Positions 2,294-44,339 of a stretch of DNA of 64,000 bases are shown one piece after another; positions within the stretch are counted from its first letter, which is position 1, and the number at the start of each line of letters is the position of its first letter. The position numbers and the translations under genes were made by a program. The notes beneath the pieces were generated by a model. It made no database searches. It had not been told where the DNA came from and worked only from the letters and a program-made list of their open reading frames with translations. This DNA is from Candidatus Doudnabacteria bacterium (lineage in GTDB: Bacteria; Patescibacteriota; Doudnabacteria; UBA920), in NCBI GenBank assembly GCA_963837465.1, contig CAWINB010000004.1, positions 458,853 through 522,852 on the forward strand. The letters run 5' to 3'.

Positions 2294-2353
2294 TGTAGTT
2301 AGCCCATTTATGGGCTGTCCAGTCATTAACAGCCGATAAATCGGCTAACTACA
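2294..2353. repeat. miniature palindromic element, copy A (intergenic)
   Basis: Terminal inverted repeats tgtagttagcc / ggctaactaca with internal hairpins agcccatttatgggct and agccgataaatcggct. A near-identical copy lies at 22837-22892. Confidence 0.6.
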
Positions 2354-2425
2354 CTGGCATTAATCCAAATTATAATCCGCTTATATTAAGCGGGATTTTT
2401 ATTTTTGTGTTAGTATTAAGGCGTA

Positions 2426-3868
2426 ATGTCCAAGTCTAAAATTTTCATTTGGATAGTAATAACTTTTGCCGTGGGTATTTTGGCTGCTTCGGCTTTTGAT
2501 ATTCCGCGGCAGGGCGTTTATCTGTTTTTGGCGCTGTCTGCCGTTTGTTTTTGCGTGGCATTTGTGTCTGAAAAGAAAATTACCGCGCTGGTGACTTTAT
2601 TTTTAGTTTGCGCCGGAACGGGAGCTTTTAGGCTGCAAATATCAATTCATCCCGGTCAGTTTCAAAACCTGCTGGATGTCAGACAACAAATGGAAGGATA
2701 TATTGTGGAGGATGTTGAAATTAAAAATAACCTGCAGCAGCTTACGTTCCGCCCCAATAATTTTAAGCAGGATATTTTAATCAGCGAAACCTTGGGCCAG
2801 AAATTTTTTTACGGCGACCGGGTAGTGGCGACCGGGAAAATTGAGGAGGCAAAAAATTACGGCAATTTTGATTATCAAAAATACTTGCGGCGCTACAATA
2901 TTTACGGGCTTATGGATTATCCGCAGGTTTTAATTTTAAAAACCCGGCAATTAAACCCGCTTAAGTATTGGCTGCTTATGGCCAAGGCGGCATTTTCGCG
3001 AAAAATTTCCGTGATGTTCAGCCAGCCGCAGCAGTCTTTTTTGCTGGCCATATTAACGGGAGAAAAAGGGAATTTGCCGCAATCCGTAATCGGCAATTTC
3101 AGTAAAACCGGCGCTTCGCATATTATTGCCGCGGATGGTTACAAGGTCGCCGTTTTGGTAGGGCTTTTGTCTTCGCTGGCTCCTTTTTTTGGCCGCCGGG
3201 CGGCTTTCTGGCTGACAATTTTAGCCTTAACCGGGTTTGTGGTCATAACCGGCGCGCCGGCTTCGGTGGTTCGCTCGGCCATTATGGGTTTTTTGCTGGT
3301 TTTTTCCATTAATATAGGCCGTCAGTATTCCATTGTGCCGGCCTTGTTTTTTGCCGCGGCCCTGATGCTGCTGTTCAATCCGAAAATTTTATTTTGGGAC
3401 GCTGGTTTCCAGCTGTCTTTTGCCGCCACTTTGGGTATTGTTTATTTTATGCCGGTGCTTAAGCGGCTTAGCCGGGACCTGCCGGATTTGTGGTTTGTTA
3501 AAAATTTATTTTTAATTACTCTGGCCGCGGTGGTTTCCACCATGCCTTTTATTTTGCTGGATTTTGGCGTGTTAAGTCTGTCCGCTCCCGTTGTCAATGT
3601 CCTGATTATGCCCGCGCTGTCTTTTGCCATGGCTTTTGGCTTTCTGTCCGTACTGCCGTTTTTGGGCAAAGGCTTCGCTTTTATAGCCAACGGGCTTTTA
3701 TCTTACATTTTAAAGGTCACGGCTTTTTTCGCGCTGCTGCCTTATGCCAGTTTGAGCTTTAGTATTGCGCCCTGGATGTTTTGGCTGCTTCTGGCCGCGG
3801 TTTTCGGGCTGTATTTTTTGCTGAGATTTTTTGCCGGCCGCATGACGGCAAAGAATACGGATTCTTAA
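2426..3868 (+). CDS. comEC: ComEC/Rec2-family DNA-uptake channel protein (competence domain only, no metallo-beta-lactamase domain)
   Basis: Polytopic membrane protein. Competence-domain motifs are LAILTGEKGNL, TGASHIIAADGYKVAVL (the HLLAISGLHV equivalent), ASVVRSAIMG and WDAGFQLSFAATLGIV. Confidence 0.8.
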   Translation: MSKSKIFIWIVITFAVGILAASAFDIPRQGVYLFLALSAVCFCVAFVSEKKITALVTLFLVCAGTGAFRLQISIHPGQFQNLLDVRQQMEGYIVEDVEIKNNLQQLTFRPNNFKQDILISETLGQKFFYGDRVVATGKIEEAKNYGNFDYQKYLRRYNIYGLMDYPQVLILKTRQLNPLKYWLLMAKAAFSRKISVMFSQPQQSFLLAILTGEKGNLPQSVIGNFSKTGASHIIAADGYKVAVLVGLLSSLAPFFGRRAAFWLTILALTGFVVITGAPASVVRSAIMGFLLVFSINIGRQYSIVPALFFAAALMLLFNPKILFWDAGFQLSFAATLGIVYFMPVLKRLSRDLPDLWFVKNLFLITLAAVVSTMPFILLDFGVLSLSAPVVNVLIMPALSFAMAFGFLSVLPFLGKGFAFIANGLLSYILKVTAFFALLPYASLSFSIAPWMFWLLLAAVFGLYFLLRFFAGRMTAKNTDS

Positions 3869-4924: not shown

Positions 4925-4966
4925 CTAAACGCTAAACGCTAAACGCTAAACGCTAAACGCTAAAAC
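4925..4966. repeat. 7-bp tandem microsatellite (ctaaacg)x5 plus a partial unit; with upstream ggcgtttag it forms a hairpin after ppiB
   Basis: Directly visible tandem repeat. Confidence 0.8.
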
Positions 4967-12883: not shown

Positions 12884-12934
12884 ACTAGGGGATAGAGAAT
12901 AGAGAATAGGGGTTAGGGGTTAGGGATTAGTATG

Positions 12935-19037: not shown

Positions 19038-19174
19038 AACTTATCCAGAGAGCAGTTAGGGATCTAGCCCGTTGACCTGCCGGCAACCAATCGGTTTTCA
19101 CCGATAAGGTGCTAATTCTAGCCCGTAAAGGGAAAGATGAAAATTTATCTGACCCTTACAAAAGGGATTTTTTT
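19038..19174 (+). ncRNA. SAM-I (S-box) riboswitch with terminator expression platform, leader of metK
   Basis: CTTATCCAGAGAGCAGTTAGGGATCTAGCCCGTTGACCTGCCGGCAACC...GGTGCTAATTCTAGCCCGTAAAGGGAAAGATGA matches the SAM-I consensus (P1 CTTATC/GATGA, GGGA..GCCCG.TGA, CGGCAACC, GGTGCTAATTC, AAAGATGA). Terminator gacccttacaaaagggattttttt at 19151-19174. Confidence 0.8.
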
Positions 19175-20363: not shown

Positions 20364-20402
20364 AAGGGCGCCCCTTTGCAACAAAGGGGCGCCCTTGTTT
20401 GC
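20364..20402 (+). terminator. rho-independent terminator after metK (same cccctttgc.gcaaagggg core reused at 44307-44339)
   Basis: acaagggcgcccctttgcaacaaaggggcgcccttgttt. Confidence 0.7.
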
Positions 20403-20429: not shown

Positions 20430-22361
20430 ATGAACAATAATTTGCCGGAATTAGCAAAACTTATCCGTTATTATTCCCTTGTATCCACCACCGCGGCCGG
20501 GAGCGGGCATCCTACATCATCTTTGAGCGCGGCGGATGTAATGACGGTGCTGATGTTTGGCCGAAGGTCGCCCGAAGCTTTGGCGAAGGGGGAAGGGTTT
20601 TTCCGCGCTGATCTAGAAAATCCGGAATATATTAACAACGACCGGTTGATATTTAGCAAAGGCCACGCTTCTCCTTTGTTTTATTCTTTGTACGCGGCGG
20701 CCGGAAAAGTCAGTGAGCAGGAAATGCTGTCGCTCCGCAAAATGGGTTCCCATTTGGAGGGTCACCCTACAATGCTGTTTCCTTATACGGAAGTGCCTAC
20801 GGGTTCGCTTGGCCAGGGTTTATCCGTGGGTGTCGGTATGGCGCTAAATGCCAAATTAGACAAATTATCTTACAAAACTTATGTCTTATTGGGCGACAGC
20901 GAGATGGCCGAGGGCAGCGTTTGGGAGGCTATGGCCGCGGCATCCTTTAATAAACTGGACAACTTGGTGGCGATTTTGGATTGCAACCGCCTGGGCCAGC
21001 GCGGCGAGACTATGTACGGGCATCACGCCGAAATTTATGAACAGAGGGCCAAAAGTTTTGGCTGGGAAACTGTTGTGGTGGATGGGCATGACATCGGCGA
21101 AATCGGTAAAGCTTTCGGGCAAATCACGGGGTCGGTAAATCAGAAACCGAAAATGATTATCGCGAAAACCCTTAAGGGCAAAGGCGTGTCGTTTATGGAA
21201 GACAAAGACGGCTGGCACGGCAAGGCTTTGTCGGCCGATGAATTAAAAAAGGCTTTGGAAGAGCTGGGGGAAGCTGATAAGAGTCTGGTGGGGAAAATCG
21301 CGATGCCGGAGCAAGTTAAAACTGAAAAGTTGAAAGTTGAAAGCTGGGATCAAAAAATCAAATTTACGGATTATCCCAAAGACCAAAAAGTTGCCACGCG
21401 CGAGGCTTACGGCAACGCGCTGGTTAATTTGGTGGAAGCAAATGATCGCGTAATTGTTTTGGACGCCGAGACCAGCAATTCCACGTATTCGGAATTTGTA
21501 AAGAAAAATCATCCGGAAAAGTTTTTTGAAATGTACATTGCCGAACAAAATATGGTGGGCGTGGCTTTGGGATTTTCCCGCCGCGGAAAAATTCCTTTTG
21601 TGTCCACTTTCGCGGCTTTTTTTAGCCGGGCGTTTGACCAAATCAGGATGTCGCAGTACGCGCGCGCCAACATTAAGTTCGTGGGCTCCCACGCTGGCGT
21701 CAGTATTGGCGAAGACGGTTCATCACAAATGGCTTTGGAAGACATTGCTATGTTCAGGACCAATTTAAACGGCGCGGTTTTGTATCCTTCTGATGCCGTG
21801 TCGGCCGAAAAGTTAGTGGCTGAAGCGGCTAAACACCGGGGCAACGTTTACATCCGTACCACGCGCAAGGACACGGCAATTTTATATAGCAATAAGCAGA
21901 CAGCAGACAGCAGACAGCAAGATGGCCTTGTTCAACACAATTTTAAAATAGGAGGGTCATGCGTTTTAAAATCATCCTCTAACGATCAAATAACCGTAAT
22001 AGGCGCGGGTATAACTTTACACGAAGCTTTGGCCGCTTATGAGGATTTGAAAAAAGAAAATATAAATATCCGCGTGATAGATCTTTACTCTATAAAACCG
22101 CTGGATGTTGAAACCCTAAAAAAAGCCGCGGCCGAAACCAAAGCAATAATCACTGTGGAAGATCATTTTCCCGAAGGCGGAATTGGTGAAGCGGTCGCGG
22201 CGGCAATAAGCACACAGCAAACAGCAAACAGTTGCTTCGTCTGTGCTCTGTGTGTTCGCAAAGAACCCCACAGCGGAAAGCCGGACGAGCTACTCTCGTA
22301 TGAAGAAATTGATAAAAATGCTATTATGAAAGCAATTAAAGAGCAATTAGCAAAAAGCTAA
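20430..22361 (+). CDS. tkt: transketolase (single polypeptide) with low-complexity microsatellite-encoded inserts
   Basis: TAAGSGHPTSSLS, GHASPLFYSLYAAAG, GDSEMAEGSVWEA, and C-terminal GGIGEAV...DELL. The likely start MNNNLPELAKL is at 20430. (agcagac)x3 at 21899-21919 and (acagcaa)x2 near 22207 lie inside the CDS. Confidence 0.9.
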   Translation: MNNNLPELAKLIRYYSLVSTTAAGSGHPTSSLSAADVMTVLMFGRRSPEALAKGEGFFRADLENPEYINNDRLIFSKGHASPLFYSLYAAAGKVSEQEMLSLRKMGSHLEGHPTMLFPYTEVPTGSLGQGLSVGVGMALNAKLDKLSYKTYVLLGDSEMAEGSVWEAMAAASFNKLDNLVAILDCNRLGQRGETMYGHHAEIYEQRAKSFGWETVVVDGHDIGEIGKAFGQITGSVNQKPKMIIAKTLKGKGVSFMEDKDGWHGKALSADELKKALEELGEADKSLVGKIAMPEQVKTEKLKVESWDQKIKFTDYPKDQKVATREAYGNALVNLVEANDRVIVLDAETSNSTYSEFVKKNHPEKFFEMYIAEQNMVGVALGFSRRGKIPFVSTFAAFFSRAFDQIRMSQYARANIKFVGSHAGVSIGEDGSSQMALEDIAMFRTNLNGAVLYPSDAVSAEKLVAEAAKHRGNVYIRTTRKDTAILYSNKQTADSRQQDGLVQHNFKIGGSCVLKSSSNDQITVIGAGITLHEALAAYEDLKKENINIRVIDLYSIKPLDVETLKKAAAETKAIITVEDHFPEGGIGEAVAAAISTQQTANSCFVCALCVRKEPHSGKPDELLSYEEIDKNAIMKAIKEQLAKS

Positions 22362-22525: not shown

Positions 22526-22591
22526 TGTCAGCAGTCAGCAGTCAGCAGTCAGCAGTCAGCTGTCAGCTGACTGCTAATTGCTAATTGCTAA
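22526..22591. repeat. tandem 7-mers (cagcagt)x4-5 with embedded palindrome cagtcagctgtcagctgactg, followed by (ctaattg)x3
   Basis: Directly visible. Lies between tkt and glpX. Confidence 0.8.
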
Positions 22592-22602
22592 TTGCTACCA
22601 CT

Positions 22603-23593
22603 ATGGACAGAAATCTTGCTTTAGAATTTGTAAGGGTTACCGAAGCCGCGGCCATTGCGGCATTGTAAGTGGGTGGGTAAAGGCGATGGTAAAAAAGCTG
22701 ATGCCGCGGCCGTGGACGAAATGCGTGACCGATTTAATCAAATAGATTTTGCCGGGACTGTTGTTATTGGCGAGGGAAGTAAGGATGAATCCGCGGAATT
22801 GTATCAGGGTGAGAGATTAGGAAAAGGCTGGGGAAGTGTAGTCAGCCCATTTATGGGCTCAAAAAGAACAGCCGATAAATCGGCTAACTACATTGATTTA
22901 GCTATTGACCCATTAGAGTGTACCGACAGCGTGGCTTTTGGACGATATAATGCTTTAACTGTGATTGCAGCAGGCAGTCACGGTTCGTTGCTTAATGCCC
23001 CGGATACATACATGGAAAAAATCGCGGCCGGGCCAAAGGCGGCTAAGGTTATAAAATTAGACGCGCCGACATCGGTAAACATAAAAAATACAGCCAAAGC
23101 CCTGGGTAAAAAAGTGGGGGATATTACGGTTTGTATTTTGGACAGGCCGCGTCATCAGAAATTAATCGAAGAAGTGCGCAAGGCCGGCGCCCGGGTGCGC
23201 TTAATTACCGACGGCGACGTGGCCGGCGGCATTGCCCCATGTATGCCAGAGTCGGGGATTGATCTTTTGATGGGCATCGGAGCGTCAGCAGAAGCAGTTC
23301 TGGCTGGCGTAGCGATTAAAATCCTCGGCGGCCAAATGCTTTGCCGCTTTAAACCAAAAGACGACCACCATTCATCACTCATTAAAAAAGCCGGGCTTAA
23401 CACTACTAAAGTTTATTCGGTCAACGATTTGGCCAAAGGTAATCAATTAACTTTTACCGCCACCGGCGTCATAGACGGCCCGCTTTTGCAAGGCGTTCGC
23501 TTTGCCGACCCGTTTATCATAACCCACTCAATTGTCATACGCGGGCAAAGCGGGACAATTAGGTATATAACTACCCATCATAAAGGAAAATAA
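22603..23593 (+). CDS. glpX: fructose-1,6-bisphosphatase class II (GlpX). The conserved N-terminus MDRNLALEFVRVTEAAAIAAL is in frame 1 (22603-22665) and the rest in frame +1 (from 22655), an apparent single-base +1 frameshift at ~22664-22667. Carries an in-frame 18-aa insertion from a palindromic mini-element.
   Basis: Both parts match GlpX consensus (M.R.LALE.VRVTEAAA.A...W.G.GDK..AD.AAV; DP..GT; LNAPD.YMEKI; ILDRPRH; ITDGDVA; GIGA.EAVL). Frame 1 hits TAA at 22666; skipping one T restores AAL-KWVGKGDGKK. Confidence 0.8.
22837..22892. repeat. miniature palindromic element, copy B, inserted in-frame inside glpX (encodes roughly VVSPFMGSKRTADKSANY)
   Basis: tgtagtcagcccatttatgggct...aacagccgataaatcggctaactaca is near-identical to copy A at 2294-2353, including the terminal IRs. 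Confidence 0.65.
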
Positions 23594-23821: not shown

Positions 23822-24727
23822 ATGAACAAAGAAACAGGCTATACAAAACCACTGTTTATTATGGCGTTTGACCACCGCGCCAGTTTTGCCAAAATGATTA
23901 TGGGCAAGGAAGATCTTTCGGCCGCGGAAGTTGAACAGGTCAGGCATTATAAGTATTTAATTTACCAGGGCTTGCTTAAGGCCATTGAGCAGGGTGTGCC
24001 CAAAGAGCAGGCCGCGGTTTTGGTGGATGAATATTCCGGCGACAAAGTTTTGCAGGACGCCCGGGCGCAAGGTTTGACTACCATCCTCACAACGGAAAAA
24101 AGCGGCAAGCCGGAATTTATGTTTGAGTACGAGGATTTTGGCGCGCATATAGAAAAGTACAAACCAACCTTTACCAAAGCCCTGGTACGTTATAATCCGG
24201 AGGGAGATATGGCCACCAACGGGCGCAGCAGGGAACAGTTAAAAATTTTGGGAGATTATTCCCACAGCCACGGCTATAAATTTTTAATTGAACCGCTTAT
24301 TCCGGCCATCGACGCCCAACTTGCCCAGGTTTCCGGCGACAAACATCGCTACGATCTGGAATTGCGCCCGGACTTGACCGTGCGAATGATTAAGGAAATG
24401 CAACAAGCCGGCGTTAATCCGGACATTTGGAAAATAGAGGGCTTGGATGAATCTGTATCTTACGAACAAGTGGTGGCGCAAGCAAGAAGCGGCGGCAGGG
24501 ATAATGTCAGTTGTGTAATTTTAGGTCGCGGCGAAAGTAATCAAGGCGTGGAAAAATGGATTAACGCCGGAAAAAATGTTTCCGGAATGGTGGGTTTTGC
24601 CATCGGCCGCACGATTTTTGCCGAAAGTTTAGCCGCCCTGCATCAACAAAAAATTTCCGAGGCCGAAGCTGTAGAGCAAATTAGTAAAAATTATTTTCAT
24701 TTTTACCAAGTGTTTACGAGTAAATAA
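23822..24727 (+). CDS. class I aldolase of the LacD (tagatose/fructose-1,6-bisphosphate aldolase) family
   Basis: LFIMAFDHRASFAKMIM aligns with LacD ISALAFDQRGALKRMM, with further collinear patches. Sits in a tkt/glpX/tal sugar-phosphate cluster. Confidence 0.55.
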   Translation: MNKETGYTKPLFIMAFDHRASFAKMIMGKEDLSAAEVEQVRHYKYLIYQGLLKAIEQGVPKEQAAVLVDEYSGDKVLQDARAQGLTTILTTEKSGKPEFMFEYEDFGAHIEKYKPTFTKALVRYNPEGDMATNGRSREQLKILGDYSHSHGYKFLIEPLIPAIDAQLAQVSGDKHRYDLELRPDLTVRMIKEMQQAGVNPDIWKIEGLDESVSYEQVVAQARSGGRDNVSCVILGRGESNQGVEKWINAGKNVSGMVGFAIGRTIFAESLAALHQQKISEAEAVEQISKNYFHFYQVFTSK

Positions 24728-32465: not shown

Positions 32466-35400
32466 ATGGTAAAAAGACCGGGCTTATTCGGAAAGGGATG
32501 GAGTTTTTTTCCGGCGTTGTTTTTTGGCGGCCTTGTTGTCCTTTCGTCGCTGCTGTTTTTGCCCAAAGCGGCCTATGCCTCCGGAGACCGCTATTGGGTT
32601 GGGGGAACTGGAAATTGGTCCGACACTTCCCATTGGTCGGCAATCAGCGGCGGATCGGGCGGCGCGAGCGTGCCGGACAACTCGACCAACTGTTATTTTG
32701 ACGCAAGCTCATTTTCCGGCAGCGGCCAAACCGTAACTTTGGATGAAAGCGGCGGGTGCGATACTATGGATTGGACCGGAGCGACAAACTCCCCGACATT
32801 CACGATGAGCAACCCGCTGACCATCGGCGGGTCTTTCACGCTGACAAGCGGCATGACCGTCAACGGTCTTTCCCCAGGCATCACTTTCAACTCCCTGGGC
32901 ACGAACACAATTACTTTGGCCGGACACGCTTTGCCACTTATCAATGTTGAGATGATTTTTGCGGGCGGGGGTACCTGGACGCTCCAGGATGCCTGGAATA
33001 TGCCCAGCCTTCAGGTATATATGGCACAAGGTACACTCAATACCAATAACCAAAATTTTCTGGTTAGGCAGATATACGATAATACCAATAACGATGGCGG
33101 CGGCCTTGATGACCCCGGTAACGTTACGGTGAACTTCGGTTCTTCAAACGTTACCATAATTGATACTCTGGCTCTGGCCTTAGACAGTACGACCTTGATA
33201 GGCACTTCATCGAACATAACCATAGCCCCCGATGTTGATAATACGATATTTTTTGTCAACGGTACCGCTCAATTTAACAGTTTTCACGCGGAGGCGGGAA
33301 CCCCATCCGAACCCACCAGTAATAGACTGCAAACCTTTGGAACAATCTTTGCCGATACCCTGACCCTTGACCCCATCGGAACCTCCACCTGGCCGGTGGG
33401 GGCATTTGAGACGGATGACTTAGTTTCAAATGGCAATTCAGGGAACCTGGTCAACATCAGCGGAAACTTTCAAGCTGAGGCTCAAATATCCGCAGATTAT
33501 TTGGATATTACCGATTCCACCTGCTTGGGCGTTACACCCTGCTATGCCGGGACGCATAGTGTCGATGGGGGCGGGAATGCCAACTGGATTTTTACAGCTC
33601 CCCCTCCTCCGGACGTAATCTCCGTTACCGGACAAAACCCCGCTTTGGCAACCACCAGCACGCCCTCAATAACCATTAATGGTTCGGGGTTCGCCCCAAC
33701 GCCTACGGTTACTGTGGGCGGCACAGCCGCGACCAATGTTACATATGTTGACGCGGGCACCCTTACTGCCACAGCTCCGGCAAAAGGGCTTGGTAGTTAT
33801 GATGTGGTGGTAACCAACCCTGACACCAGCACCGCGACTTGTGCCGGTTGTATGCTTTACGTCAGCGCGCCCGGCGTGCCCACTGATGCAACCTCGACCC
33901 CCGGTAACGACCAAGCCTCCCTGTCATGGTCTGCTCCTGTTTCAGATGGCGGCTCTCCTCTTATAGACTATCTGGTGCAGTACAAACTAAGCGCTTCATC
34001 AACTTTTGACAGTACCTTTGACACTAACTCAACGAGCACAATGACAATTGTCACCGGCCTGATGAACGGATCAAGCTACGACTTTGAGGTTGTGGCGGAA
34101 AACGCCGCTGGCAGTTCAACTCCCTCTAGCATTGTTTCGGCTTCGCTCGCGGCAACGGTTCCGGACCCACCCACTTCGGTTTCCGCCACGGCCGGCAACG
34201 GGCAGGCGGTTGTATCATTCTCGGCTCCGGACAATGACGGTGGCTCTCCGATTACTGCGTATACTGTAACCAGTAATCCGGGCAACATTACGGCAACAGG
34301 TTCTTCCAGTCCCATTACCATAACCGGCCTGACTATTGGCGTTGGTTATACTTTTACTGTTACAGCCGGCAACACGTTGGGGGACTCCGTTTCCTCGAGT
34401 CCTTCAGGCACCGTGACCCCGTTTGTACCCTACGCGGCTTCGGCGCTTTTGGGCCAGGTTGATGGCAGCGGTAACCCGCTGTGGACAGACTCTGGCTCCA
34501 ATAACTCTTCTGGCTCGGTTAACCTGCAGGGATTCCATAACCCTTCTGATGTAACTGTTGACTCTGTGAACCATCGCCTGTTTGTTTCCGATACGGGCAA
34601 CAAGCGAGTTTTAGTATTTAGTCTTGATACAACCGACAACATTGCCTCAACCACTGCTTTGTACGCGCTGGGAAGCGGCATTAGCAGCTTTGAGCCGGAA
34701 TATCTTTCCTATGACCCAATAAACCAGCGTTTGTTTGTCGGCGATGACGGCAATCAGACAGTTGAGGTATTTAACGTCGCCACCTCCACCATCAGCGACA
34801 GCGAGAGTCCGGATAATACCCTGAACTATCTGACTGATAATGGGGCTGTTCCTGCTGGTTTAGCTTACGATTCCGTAAACCAGCGTTTGTTTGTCGGCGA
34901 TGACGGCAATCAGACAGTTGAGGTATTTAACGTCGCCACCTCCACCATCAGCGACAGCGAGAGTCCGGATAATACCCTGGACTACCTCGCTGATAGTGGG
35001 GCTGCTCCTATTGGCCTGGCTTACGATTCCGTAAACCAGCGTTTGTTTGTCGGCGATTATAATAATGAGACAGTCTACGCTTTTAACGTCGCCACCTCCA
35101 CTATCAGCAACAGCGAGAGTCCGGACAATACCCTGGACTACCTCGCTGATAGTGGGGCTGCTCCTATTGGCCTGGCTTACGATTCCGTAAACCAGCGTTT
35201 GTTTGTCGCTGATAATAATAATGACACAACCTGGGCTTTTAACACCTCCACCTCCACCATAAGCGACAGCGAAAGTCCTGAAATTTACTTACCAAACGGC
35301 GCAAGAGGAGCGGCTACTCAAAGCAGCTTTCTTGAAAACGCAGGTCTTGCTTATGACAGCGGGAATTACCATCTGTTTTTGGTTGACCAGAATGCCAACC

Positions 35401-44306: not shown

Positions 44307-44339
44307 AAGGGTGCCCCTTTGCGGCAAAGGGGCGCCCTT
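44307..44339. terminator. bidirectional rho-independent terminator between convergent genes
   Basis: aagggtgcccctttgcggcaaaggggcgccctt. Confidence 0.65.

Follow-up and report, generated by a model that had tools for sequence, protein, structure and literature searches.

A small palindromic element occurs twice in a 64,000-nucleotide stretch of Doudnabacteria DNA (the window, by which we mean that stretch at its full length), once between two genes and once within glpX, the gene for a class II fructose-1,6-bisphosphatase. We think it very probable that this 56-60-base element is a REPIN, in other words a doublet of two repetitive extragenic palindromes (REPs) of the GTAG type, inverted with respect to each other and with their heads pointing outward. 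Each REP consists of a GTAG head, a linker of 2-3 nt and a 6-7-bp hairpin around an ATTTAT centre, the whole hairpin being a self-complementary 14-16-mer. By analogy with characterised REP/RAYT systems, such REPINs would be non-autonomous, and a single-copy enzyme of the HUH/Y1 class, the REP-associated tyrosine transposase (RAYT), would cut and join them in the form of single-stranded hairpins, a reaction that by the same analogy would leave no target-site duplication; the family's RAYT would be the 137-residue protein that related Doudnabacteria encode between copies of these REPs. One copy (A) would have landed after the stop codon of cobO, a typical position for a REP, and the other (B) in the coding sequence of a GlpX loop, where it would be read in one of two stop-free frames. 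Because the frame is free of stops and the net length is a multiple of three, copy B would persist as a flexible loop of 17 residues ahead of the strand that holds the DLAIDP motif. It is on this analogy that we infer mobility driven by a RAYT.

Two copies of one element

The two copies and their arms, as we read them, are the following.

2294-2353, no strand: putative REPIN copy A, intergenic, its two GTAG REPs inverted and separated by a 14-nt spacer
2294-2316, plus strand: left REP of copy A, T-GTAG-TT-AGCCCATTTATGGGCT, a 'C-type' hairpin
2331-2353, minus strand: right REP of copy A, reading on the minus strand T-GTAG-TT-AGCCGATTTATCGGCT, a 'G-type' hairpin
22837-22892, no strand: putative REPIN copy B, lying in frame within glpX, its spacer 10 nt long, and encoding (S)VVSPFMGSKRTADKSANY(I)
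22837-22859, plus strand: left REP of copy B, T-GTAG-TC-AGCCCATTTATGGGCT
22870-22892, minus strand: right REP of copy B, reading on the minus strand T-GTAG-TT-AGCCGATTTATCGGCT

An earlier note, made from the letters of the window, had placed a repeated palindromic element at these two positions, and its coordinates are confirmed by the alignment of copy A (TGTAGTTAGCCCATTTATGGGCT-gtccagtcattaac-AGCCGATAAATCGGCTAACTACA) with copy B (TGTAGTCAGCCCATTTATGGGCT-caaaaagaac-AGCCGATAAATCGGCTAACTACA). Of the 23 bases in each arm, the two left arms share 22 and the two right arms share all, the sole difference being TC for TT in the left linker of copy B, and the two spacers are unlike in sequence as well as in length. 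In shuffles of the window the chance expectation is 0.06 for the 16-mer arm pattern and 0.00 for the 23-mer pattern, and when the 64 kb were scanned for GTAG next to a perfect hairpin, the family was represented by these four arms only. GTAG is present at all four window arms and at nearly all of the copies retrieved from other genomes. Each arm forms a perfect 6-7-bp hairpin by itself (AGCCCAT/ATGGGCT in one type, AGCCGAT/ATCGGCT in the other), and each copy as a whole folds, as single-stranded DNA or as RNA, into a single long imperfect hairpin (z from -4.9 to -8.0). For the DNA folds of the two copies, z lies between -4.9 and -7.5 and none of 200 shuffles folds as well; the RNA fold of the glpX element, which the earlier note had suggested predicting, is a strong hairpin of -27 kcal/mol (z -7.2). 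A target-site duplication is absent at both window copies, the flanks being ggtagt and ctggca for copy A and ggaag and ttgatt for copy B. Rfam holds no family that reaches its gathering score for the element, and the sub-threshold matches are generic hairpins, mostly microRNA precursors.

Copy A is intergenic, as the earlier note had it: it begins 13 nt past the stop codon of a gene of the CobA/CobO/BtuR family (1652-2281), the note's cobO, and a Competence/ComEC-family gene (2426-3868) lies downstream. It is followed by one further feature of interest.

2376-2394, plus strand: terminator-like hairpin and then a run of T, 3' of copy A

Since this hairpin comes after the element, copy A sits between the cobO stop codon and a putative terminator.

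Relatives of the repeat and a candidate transposase

The same sequence is widespread in other genomes. In a scan for the pattern GCCSATAAATSGGCNNNCTACA that took one genome per species, at least 116 matching stretches were found, against about 17 that the size of the collection would be estimated to yield by chance, and most of these matches are doublets, with a GTAG-bearing partner some 52-57 nt away; a few (in Hymenobacter, Terriglobales and Thiopseudomonas) look like chance. All 32 of the strictly parsed doublets pair a C-type arm (GCC-C-AT..AT-G-GGC) with a G-type arm (GCC-G-AT..AT-C-GGC), and it is because of this pairing that each arm is a perfect hairpin while the long fold contains two mismatches. 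Among the matches listed, single related metagenome-assembled genomes (MAGs), for example Co_metawrap_2493 and La4_metabat2.076, carry copies at many loci.

In addition, the glpX copy is one of a number of copies within genes. In the loci that were fetched from Doudnabacteria and Patescibacteria (designated here L001, L002 and so on), REPs and REPINs of the window family lie deep inside long open reading frames, 10 of which have Pfam domains: those of MnmA, a RimK-like ATP-grasp enzyme, an F420-ligase-like protein, ArgRS, a PMT_2 glycosyltransferase, a PfkB kinase, malic enzyme, GT2 and GT1 glycosyltransferases and a PIF1-like helicase. The domain scan covered these 10; one more such frame, of 432 aa, lies in L108. 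In translation these intragenic repeats give either ..VARPFMG..ADKSARY.. or ..CSVPIYG..PINRHAT.., and the third frame of each arm holds the TAG of GTAG and a TAA; that two of the three frames are open in each arm helps such insertions to survive.

The REP core GCCGATAAATCGGC, followed by NNN and CTACA and forming doublets with GCCCATTTATGGGC, is found not only in MAGs labelled Patescibacteria but also in L007, L014, L021, L043, L061, L078, L107 and others, in MAGs that are labelled Deltaproteobacteria, Syntrophaceae, Ignavibacteria, Elusimicrobia, Zixibacteria and Planctomycetia. Such a distribution across phyla could come from horizontal spread, from deep conservation or from contamination in binning. 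As a separate observation, the left hairpin is interrupted by a small palindrome, GCCCGACCCAACCTTCTGTTGGGCGCCCCATGGGC, in L015, L061, L076, L078, L080, L094 and L107, a nested insertion in the hairpin loop, and these interrupted copies come from MAGs labelled Deltaproteobacteria and Ignavibacteria.

What could mobilise these repeats? Using a profile that was built from the Y1 genes in the fetched loci, we found two small Y1/HUH genes, in L018 and L103, that the window REP brackets exactly. Three genes of their relatives, L205, L206 and L207, were fetched in addition, and all five of these members of a 137-aa family are flanked by inverted REPs of the window type. In L018, from the Doudnabacteria MAG La4_metabat2.076, the order is TGTAGTCTGCCGATTTATCGGC, 6 nt, an ATG, 137 codons and a TAG stop that overlaps GCCGATAAATCGGCAGACTACA, with three further doublets downstream of the gene; the locus in L103, a Patescibacteria MAG, has the same organisation, and the downstream REP overlaps the stop codon in L205 as it does in L018. 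The L018 and L103 proteins, the two that were scanned, exceed the Pfam cut-off for Y1_Tnp, and their best NCBIfam match is the REP-associated tyrosine transposase (E 1e-18 to 2e-20). The family has 204 relatives, mostly of exactly 137 aa, several of which are named 'REP element-mobilizing transposase RayT' by JGI or are assigned to Doudnabacteria by NCBI, and many of the contigs that bear them are shorter than 2 kb. We suppose, then, that the genome of the window has, or once had, a RAYT of this kind.

Other Y1 genes close to glpX, in L001, L011 and L013, were considered as the cognate enzyme and rejected, as they are flanked by hairpins of their own and not by the window REP. These genes (L001 14358-15102, L011 380-1103, L013 2490-3200) are larger, encoding some 190-215 aa, and their hairpins are perfect, for example TGGAAGAAGGGAACCTTCTTCCA and TAGTGTCAAGGGCGACCCTTGACACTA. 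They represent separate Y1-hairpin systems in the same lineage and resemble the 'TIRtrons' of PMC3733652.

The insert in glpX and its possible histories

The open reading frame that hosts copy B matches Pfam FBPase_glpX over its full length (E 6e-109) and GlpX in the PDB (E 1e-73), and its best relatives come from MAGs named 'Candidatus Doudnabacteria' and 'Patescibacteria group'; the source of the window is a small genome of the candidate phyla radiation. Copy B preserves the reading frame and lies, as had been claimed, in the loop between the GxG and DLAIDP motifs. The HMMER alignment to the solved GlpX of M. tuberculosis has a clean 17-aa gap here, and the net insert is likewise 17 aa relative to the closest orthologue, so the 18 or so residues of the earlier note are right as the number that the element encodes but not as the number added. 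By default the loop between GE.VG and DLAIDP has 7 residues (xGKGPxM). The closest orthologue (P0005, 88% identical, with the DNA GGG CGC GGC AAA CAT CCG ATG ATG GAT) has this plain loop, as do most Patescibacteria and 80 metagenomic GlpX loci that reach down to about 42% identity and include distant phyla. The metagenome scan, which serves as a control, yielded empty-loop genes only; the idea that the insert is specific to the lineage is thereby upheld, and the same residues do not recur in the distant GlpX proteins that were covered, so that the 18 residues are not ancestral.

An AlphaFold model made with an alignment of 116 sequences has a pLDDT (the model's own per-residue confidence score) of 83.7 and a TM-score (a measure of fold similarity) of 0.83-0.87 to solved GlpX structures; an alignment of 28 sequences had given a pLDDT of 45, which was unusable. 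The pLDDT of residues 63-71 of the insert is below 50, and no secondary structure is assigned to residues 61-78. This coil leads into a strand, starting at residue 79, that holds the DLAIDP motif and that we take, from what is known of E. coli GlpX, to carry the active-site metal ligands. It seems likely that the enzyme tolerates the insert.

The 5' end of this gene needs comment, and its two parts are listed here.

22655-23593, plus strand: glpX main open reading frame (class II fructose-1,6-bisphosphatase), called from TTG and lacking the conserved N-terminal helix
22603-22668, plus strand: detached 5' end of glpX, from the ATG at 22603, reading MDRNLALEFVRVTEAAAIAAL and then a stop, in another frame

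Compared with five orthologues, the window has a single extra base (A) near 22662, in GCGGC[A]TTGTAAG, which puts the nearly invariant N-terminal 20 residues out of frame, with a TAA stop immediately after. The frame is therefore unbroken at the insert, as the earlier note had it, but not in the gene as a whole; this 1-nt frameshift the note had missed. Frame breaks are absent from some eight nearby genes for which related loci have homologues, so the assembly is not generally ridden with indels in this region, and the shift may be due to a rare error of sequencing or to a recent mutation that inactivates the gene. Either is more likely than programmed +1 frameshifting at GCA-UUG-UAA, which we judged improbable on the grounds that the Leu tRNA would presumably pair poorly after the shift. 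Our view that the insert is tolerated does not depend on the window gene, because intact glpX genes in other genomes carry a similar insert.

Of particular interest is the behaviour of this loop across 116 GlpX orthologues of at least 68% identity, which the earlier note had not picked up. Around 44 of them have an insert, and every internal insertion falls at consensus positions 74-78; in the 312-residue protein the only other internal indel, present in 3% of the sequences, is a gap at consensus position 236. The inserts come from several hairpin families that are unrelated to one another, among them ADKSA[RN]Y (the window REP), PSPRPSPRGRGG, ITPSSSPSARGR, PSSALRAPSP and NHPGP..GHPSLKRRG, together with others, and the DNA of two of these shows GC-rich palindromes, one of which recurs, in frame, in the neighbouring transketolase gene of its own genome. 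The window family itself occupies the loop in independent assemblies and in different forms: as a full REPIN with a 19-nt spacer in L001 and L002, as a full REPIN with a 4-nt spacer in L123, where it is identical to intergenic copies elsewhere, and as the right REP alone in L003 and L004. On a neighbour-joining tree (a simple distance tree) insert-bearing and empty alleles are interleaved, an arrangement that appears to favour repeated insertion or exchange over one ancient event.

How did the loop come by its inserts? A real possibility, although an unlikely one, is that GlpX received a single insertion long ago, that its descendants have been kept similar by gene conversion or by RAYT-mediated exchange, and that the empty alleles arose through loss or recombination, in which case the window copy would not be a recent, independent transposition. 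Such a history would sit well with an outer context, GxG-W-(K/G/N) ... H/x-[MF], that nearly all enlarged loops share whatever lies inside them, and with the resemblance of a glpX copy to the intergenic variant of its own genome (a TAA linker in the window, an ACG linker in L001). It might also draw on the lone right REP of L003, which is identical to the window copy over 25 nt in genes that are 73% identical, but conserved coding parts of glpX also contain stretches of 25-41 nt that match exactly, so that this identity is not decisive; for the same reason, we dropped it as a sign of DNA-level constraint or of recent insertion. Against it, insert-bearing and empty alleles are thoroughly interleaved on the neighbour-joining tree, and the empty GKGPxM loop is the state in distant phyla, which means that a single origin would need many precise reversions.

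A bolder idea, which we hold only tentatively and think unlikely as matters stand, is that the GlpX loop is a landing pad at the level of DNA, a site that, after a first palindrome had occupied it, would be repeatedly targeted or overwritten by several unrelated hairpin families mobilised by Y1 transposases. The codons for G-K-G-P (GGC AAA GGG CCN) are able to form a small GC hairpin. As a corollary of this idea, the sharing of one REP core among phyla would mean horizontal spread, or extreme conservation, of a single RAYT-REP pair.

Distinctly improbable, in our view, is the proposal that the glpX hairpins are kept because they do something useful, whether because an mRNA or DNA structure acts on the expression or stability of glpX or because the peptide loop changes how the enzyme is regulated or oligomerises. 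The concentration of inserts at exactly one loop, and nowhere else in the protein, in about 44 of the 116 orthologues could be understood in this way, as could the recurrent Trp and frequent Phe at the base of the loop and the strength of the RNA hairpin. However, the inserts are made of unrelated hairpin families that differ greatly in length and sequence, many close relatives do without any insert, the insert is modelled with low confidence, and the same REPs are read in two frames in unrelated proteins, as would fit tolerated junk.

With a REPIN as our preferred account, several observations must be set down as weighing against it. Set beside the nearest empty allele, the window gene has had some five of the original codons (K-H-P-M-M) replaced and not merely split, and nearly all enlarged loops begin with Trp, whose TGG codon is outside the REPIN; the loops also often end in H-[MF] or F, regardless of the hairpin family inside. 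The profile search found no Y1 or RAYT gene in the 64-kb window, and among the 120 listed of the 204 RAYT relatives none lies on a contig of 868,218 bp, the length recorded for the glpX protein of this genome. The NCBIfam scores of the L018 and L103 proteins (67-73 bits) are below the equivalog cut-off of 80. There are only two doublets in the 64 kb, one of them intragenic, and a high copy number is not thereby shown. Finally, the frameshifted glpX may be decaying, which would make 'tolerated in frame' worth less for this genome.

Known repeat systems, the neighbourhood and wider meaning

GTAG REP/REPIN-RAYT systems have been described before (Nunvar 2010; Bertels and Rainey 2011; Di Nocera, De Gregorio and Rocco 2013, PMC3733652), and the likeness extends to a GTAG head beside a short GC-rich hairpin, inverted dimers with heads outward that fold into a longer hairpin, a position just 3' of a stop codon, the lack of a target duplication, a small HUH/Y1 gene bracketed by inverted copies (a REPtron, here in relatives) and occasional in-frame intragenic dimers of about 20 aa. 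The terms themselves are taken from PMC3733652, in which the REP tag is defined as a tetranucleotide at one end of the hairpin (GTAG, or GT[AG]G), and which also defines GTAG REPs, heads-out ('HH') dimers, intragenic REPs and REPtrons, in which REPs flank a RAYT gene. Intragenic in-frame GTAG REP dimers that encode 20-30 aa were described there in 2013 in other phyla, as was the case of recB, which in two Xanthomonas species has different REPs at about the same site. Intragenic REPs are thus an already known phenomenon, met here in an additional lineage and with an unusually clear insertion hot spot. The differences are that the host is a Doudnabacteria-like bacterium of the candidate phyla radiation, that the element is short (56-60 nt) with an A+T-rich hairpin centre (ATTTAT), that its arms are always two different self-complementary variants, that its 14-nt hairpin core is found in MAGs labelled as several phyla, although the majority of REP families described so far (there are exceptions) keep to one species or to a group of related species (PMC3733652), that the intragenic fraction looks high and that no RAYT was seen in the 64-kb window. 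In the literature that could be searched, no paper links REP/RAYT with the candidate phyla radiation, and two broad surveys of RAYT/HUH enzymes do not mention its lineages; within those bounds the earlier note was right that such behaviour had not been described for this lineage.

The note's comparison with Rickettsia palindromic elements (RPEs) and Neisseria Correia elements has not survived, given the missing target-site duplications, the GTAG/CTAC heads beside the hairpins and the Y1 transposase that the repeats flank in relatives. RPEs are alike in being palindromic repeats in frame within genes that are likely to encode functional proteins; they are set apart by their descriptions in PMC3733652, the tag here being GTAG and the length 56-60 nt, and we saw no sequence relationship. 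According to the same paper, RPE-1 is a longer palindromic insertion, and the short intragenic RPE-4 and RPE-6 of R. conorii belong to a CGTC REP super-family with no dedicated transposase, in contrast to the window family with its cognate RAYT in relatives.

More generally, we consider it very improbable that the element is a classical MITE (a miniature transposable element with inverted repeats), of the Correia kind or like the long RPEs, which would derive from an insertion sequence with a DDE transposase, move by cut-and-paste and end in terminal inverted repeats. Correia elements are roughly 100-155 bp long, with terminal repeats of about 26 bp and a TA target duplication, and are mostly intergenic. 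With these and other bacterial MITEs the element has in common that it is small, non-autonomous and repeated, and that its ends are inverted; its occurrence in frame in a protein, noticed in the earlier note, also speaks for the MITE reading. Of the length, terminal repeats, TA duplication and mostly intergenic location of Correia elements none is seen here. The 56-60 nt compare with roughly 100-150 nt for Correia elements and RPE-1, neither copy A nor copy B has a target-site duplication, the supposed terminal repeats are self-complementary hairpins with GTAG heads, and the sole transposase found flanked by the repeats is of the Y1/HUH type. Scarcely credible, last of all, is a merely coincidental resemblance of the two copies, with the GlpX residues an ordinary ancestral variable loop, for which the variability of the loop is the whole case, and which has to face arm patterns that are unexpected by chance in the window, a sequence that recurs at more than 100 places in other genomes and flanks a transposase, and distant-taxon orthologues that are without the residues.

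The small dispersed repeats and heptamer short tandemly repeated repetitive (STRR) sequences of cyanobacteria are reportedly very short hairpins that insert into each other and into genes, and we know of no established link between them and a transposase. The nested insertions in Deltaproteobacteria-labelled REP copies recall them, as does the abundance of heptamer arrays in the window, although sequences and hosts are different. The window has 17 tandem arrays with a heptamer period, mostly intergenic (for example at 4925-4964, 12907-12930, 22527-22567 and 22572-22597), whose units vary (CTAAACG, TAGGGGT, GTCAGCA, TGCTAAT and others) and recall the cyanobacterial STRR heptamers.

The transketolase gene of the window holds two such arrays in frame, AGCAGAC x3.6 (21895-21919) and AGCAAAC x3.3 (22209-22231), and at the first of these the window protein is longer than three orthologues by about 13 residues (within KQTADSRQQDGLVQH). 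Transketolase also has lineage-specific inserts at sites that are shared between genomes, in a comparison of window 20563-20595 with L122 830-2950 and L003 7295-9190: after MFG(R) the window has RSPEALAKGE and L122 a different 19 aa, and after YAAAGQ there are about 17 aa in L003 and about 78 aa in L122. The L122 insert contains CCCCTCCTTGAAAAGGAGGGG, the same hairpin as the glpX insert of that genome.

Elsewhere in the window, a second palindromic family of 33 nt, AAGGGCGCCCCTTTGC..GCAAAGGGGCGCCCTT, has two copies (20364-20396 and 44307-44339), the first directly after the S-adenosylmethionine (SAM) synthetase gene, upstream of which is a SAM riboswitch (Rfam RF00162, 58 bits, 19038-19143). 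A tandem repeat with a 156-nt unit, 3.6 copies and about 90% identity is found at 34720-35278. On the 3' side of glpX lies a gene for a DUF2090-family protein (23822-24727), a position that in related genomes is taken by a class I aldolase (Pfam 'Glycolytic').

What, then, does a REPIN in a fructose bisphosphatase mean for the biology of these organisms? On our preferred reading, REP/REPIN-RAYT systems are placed in the candidate phyla radiation, in genomes of about 1 Mb with scant intergenic space, in which the repeats would often survive within domain-bearing genes as extra loop peptides; such in-gene inserts inflate the apparent novelty of proteins and can break assemblies. If the landing-pad idea were true, genomes of the candidate phyla radiation would be continually remodelling particular loops in core enzymes, GlpX, transketolase, ArgRS and MnmA among them, with peptides encoded by repeats. 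With inserts in about 40% of its close orthologues, the GlpX loop is a clean case from nature in which to ask if hairpin repeats select their targets or if selection merely filters them.

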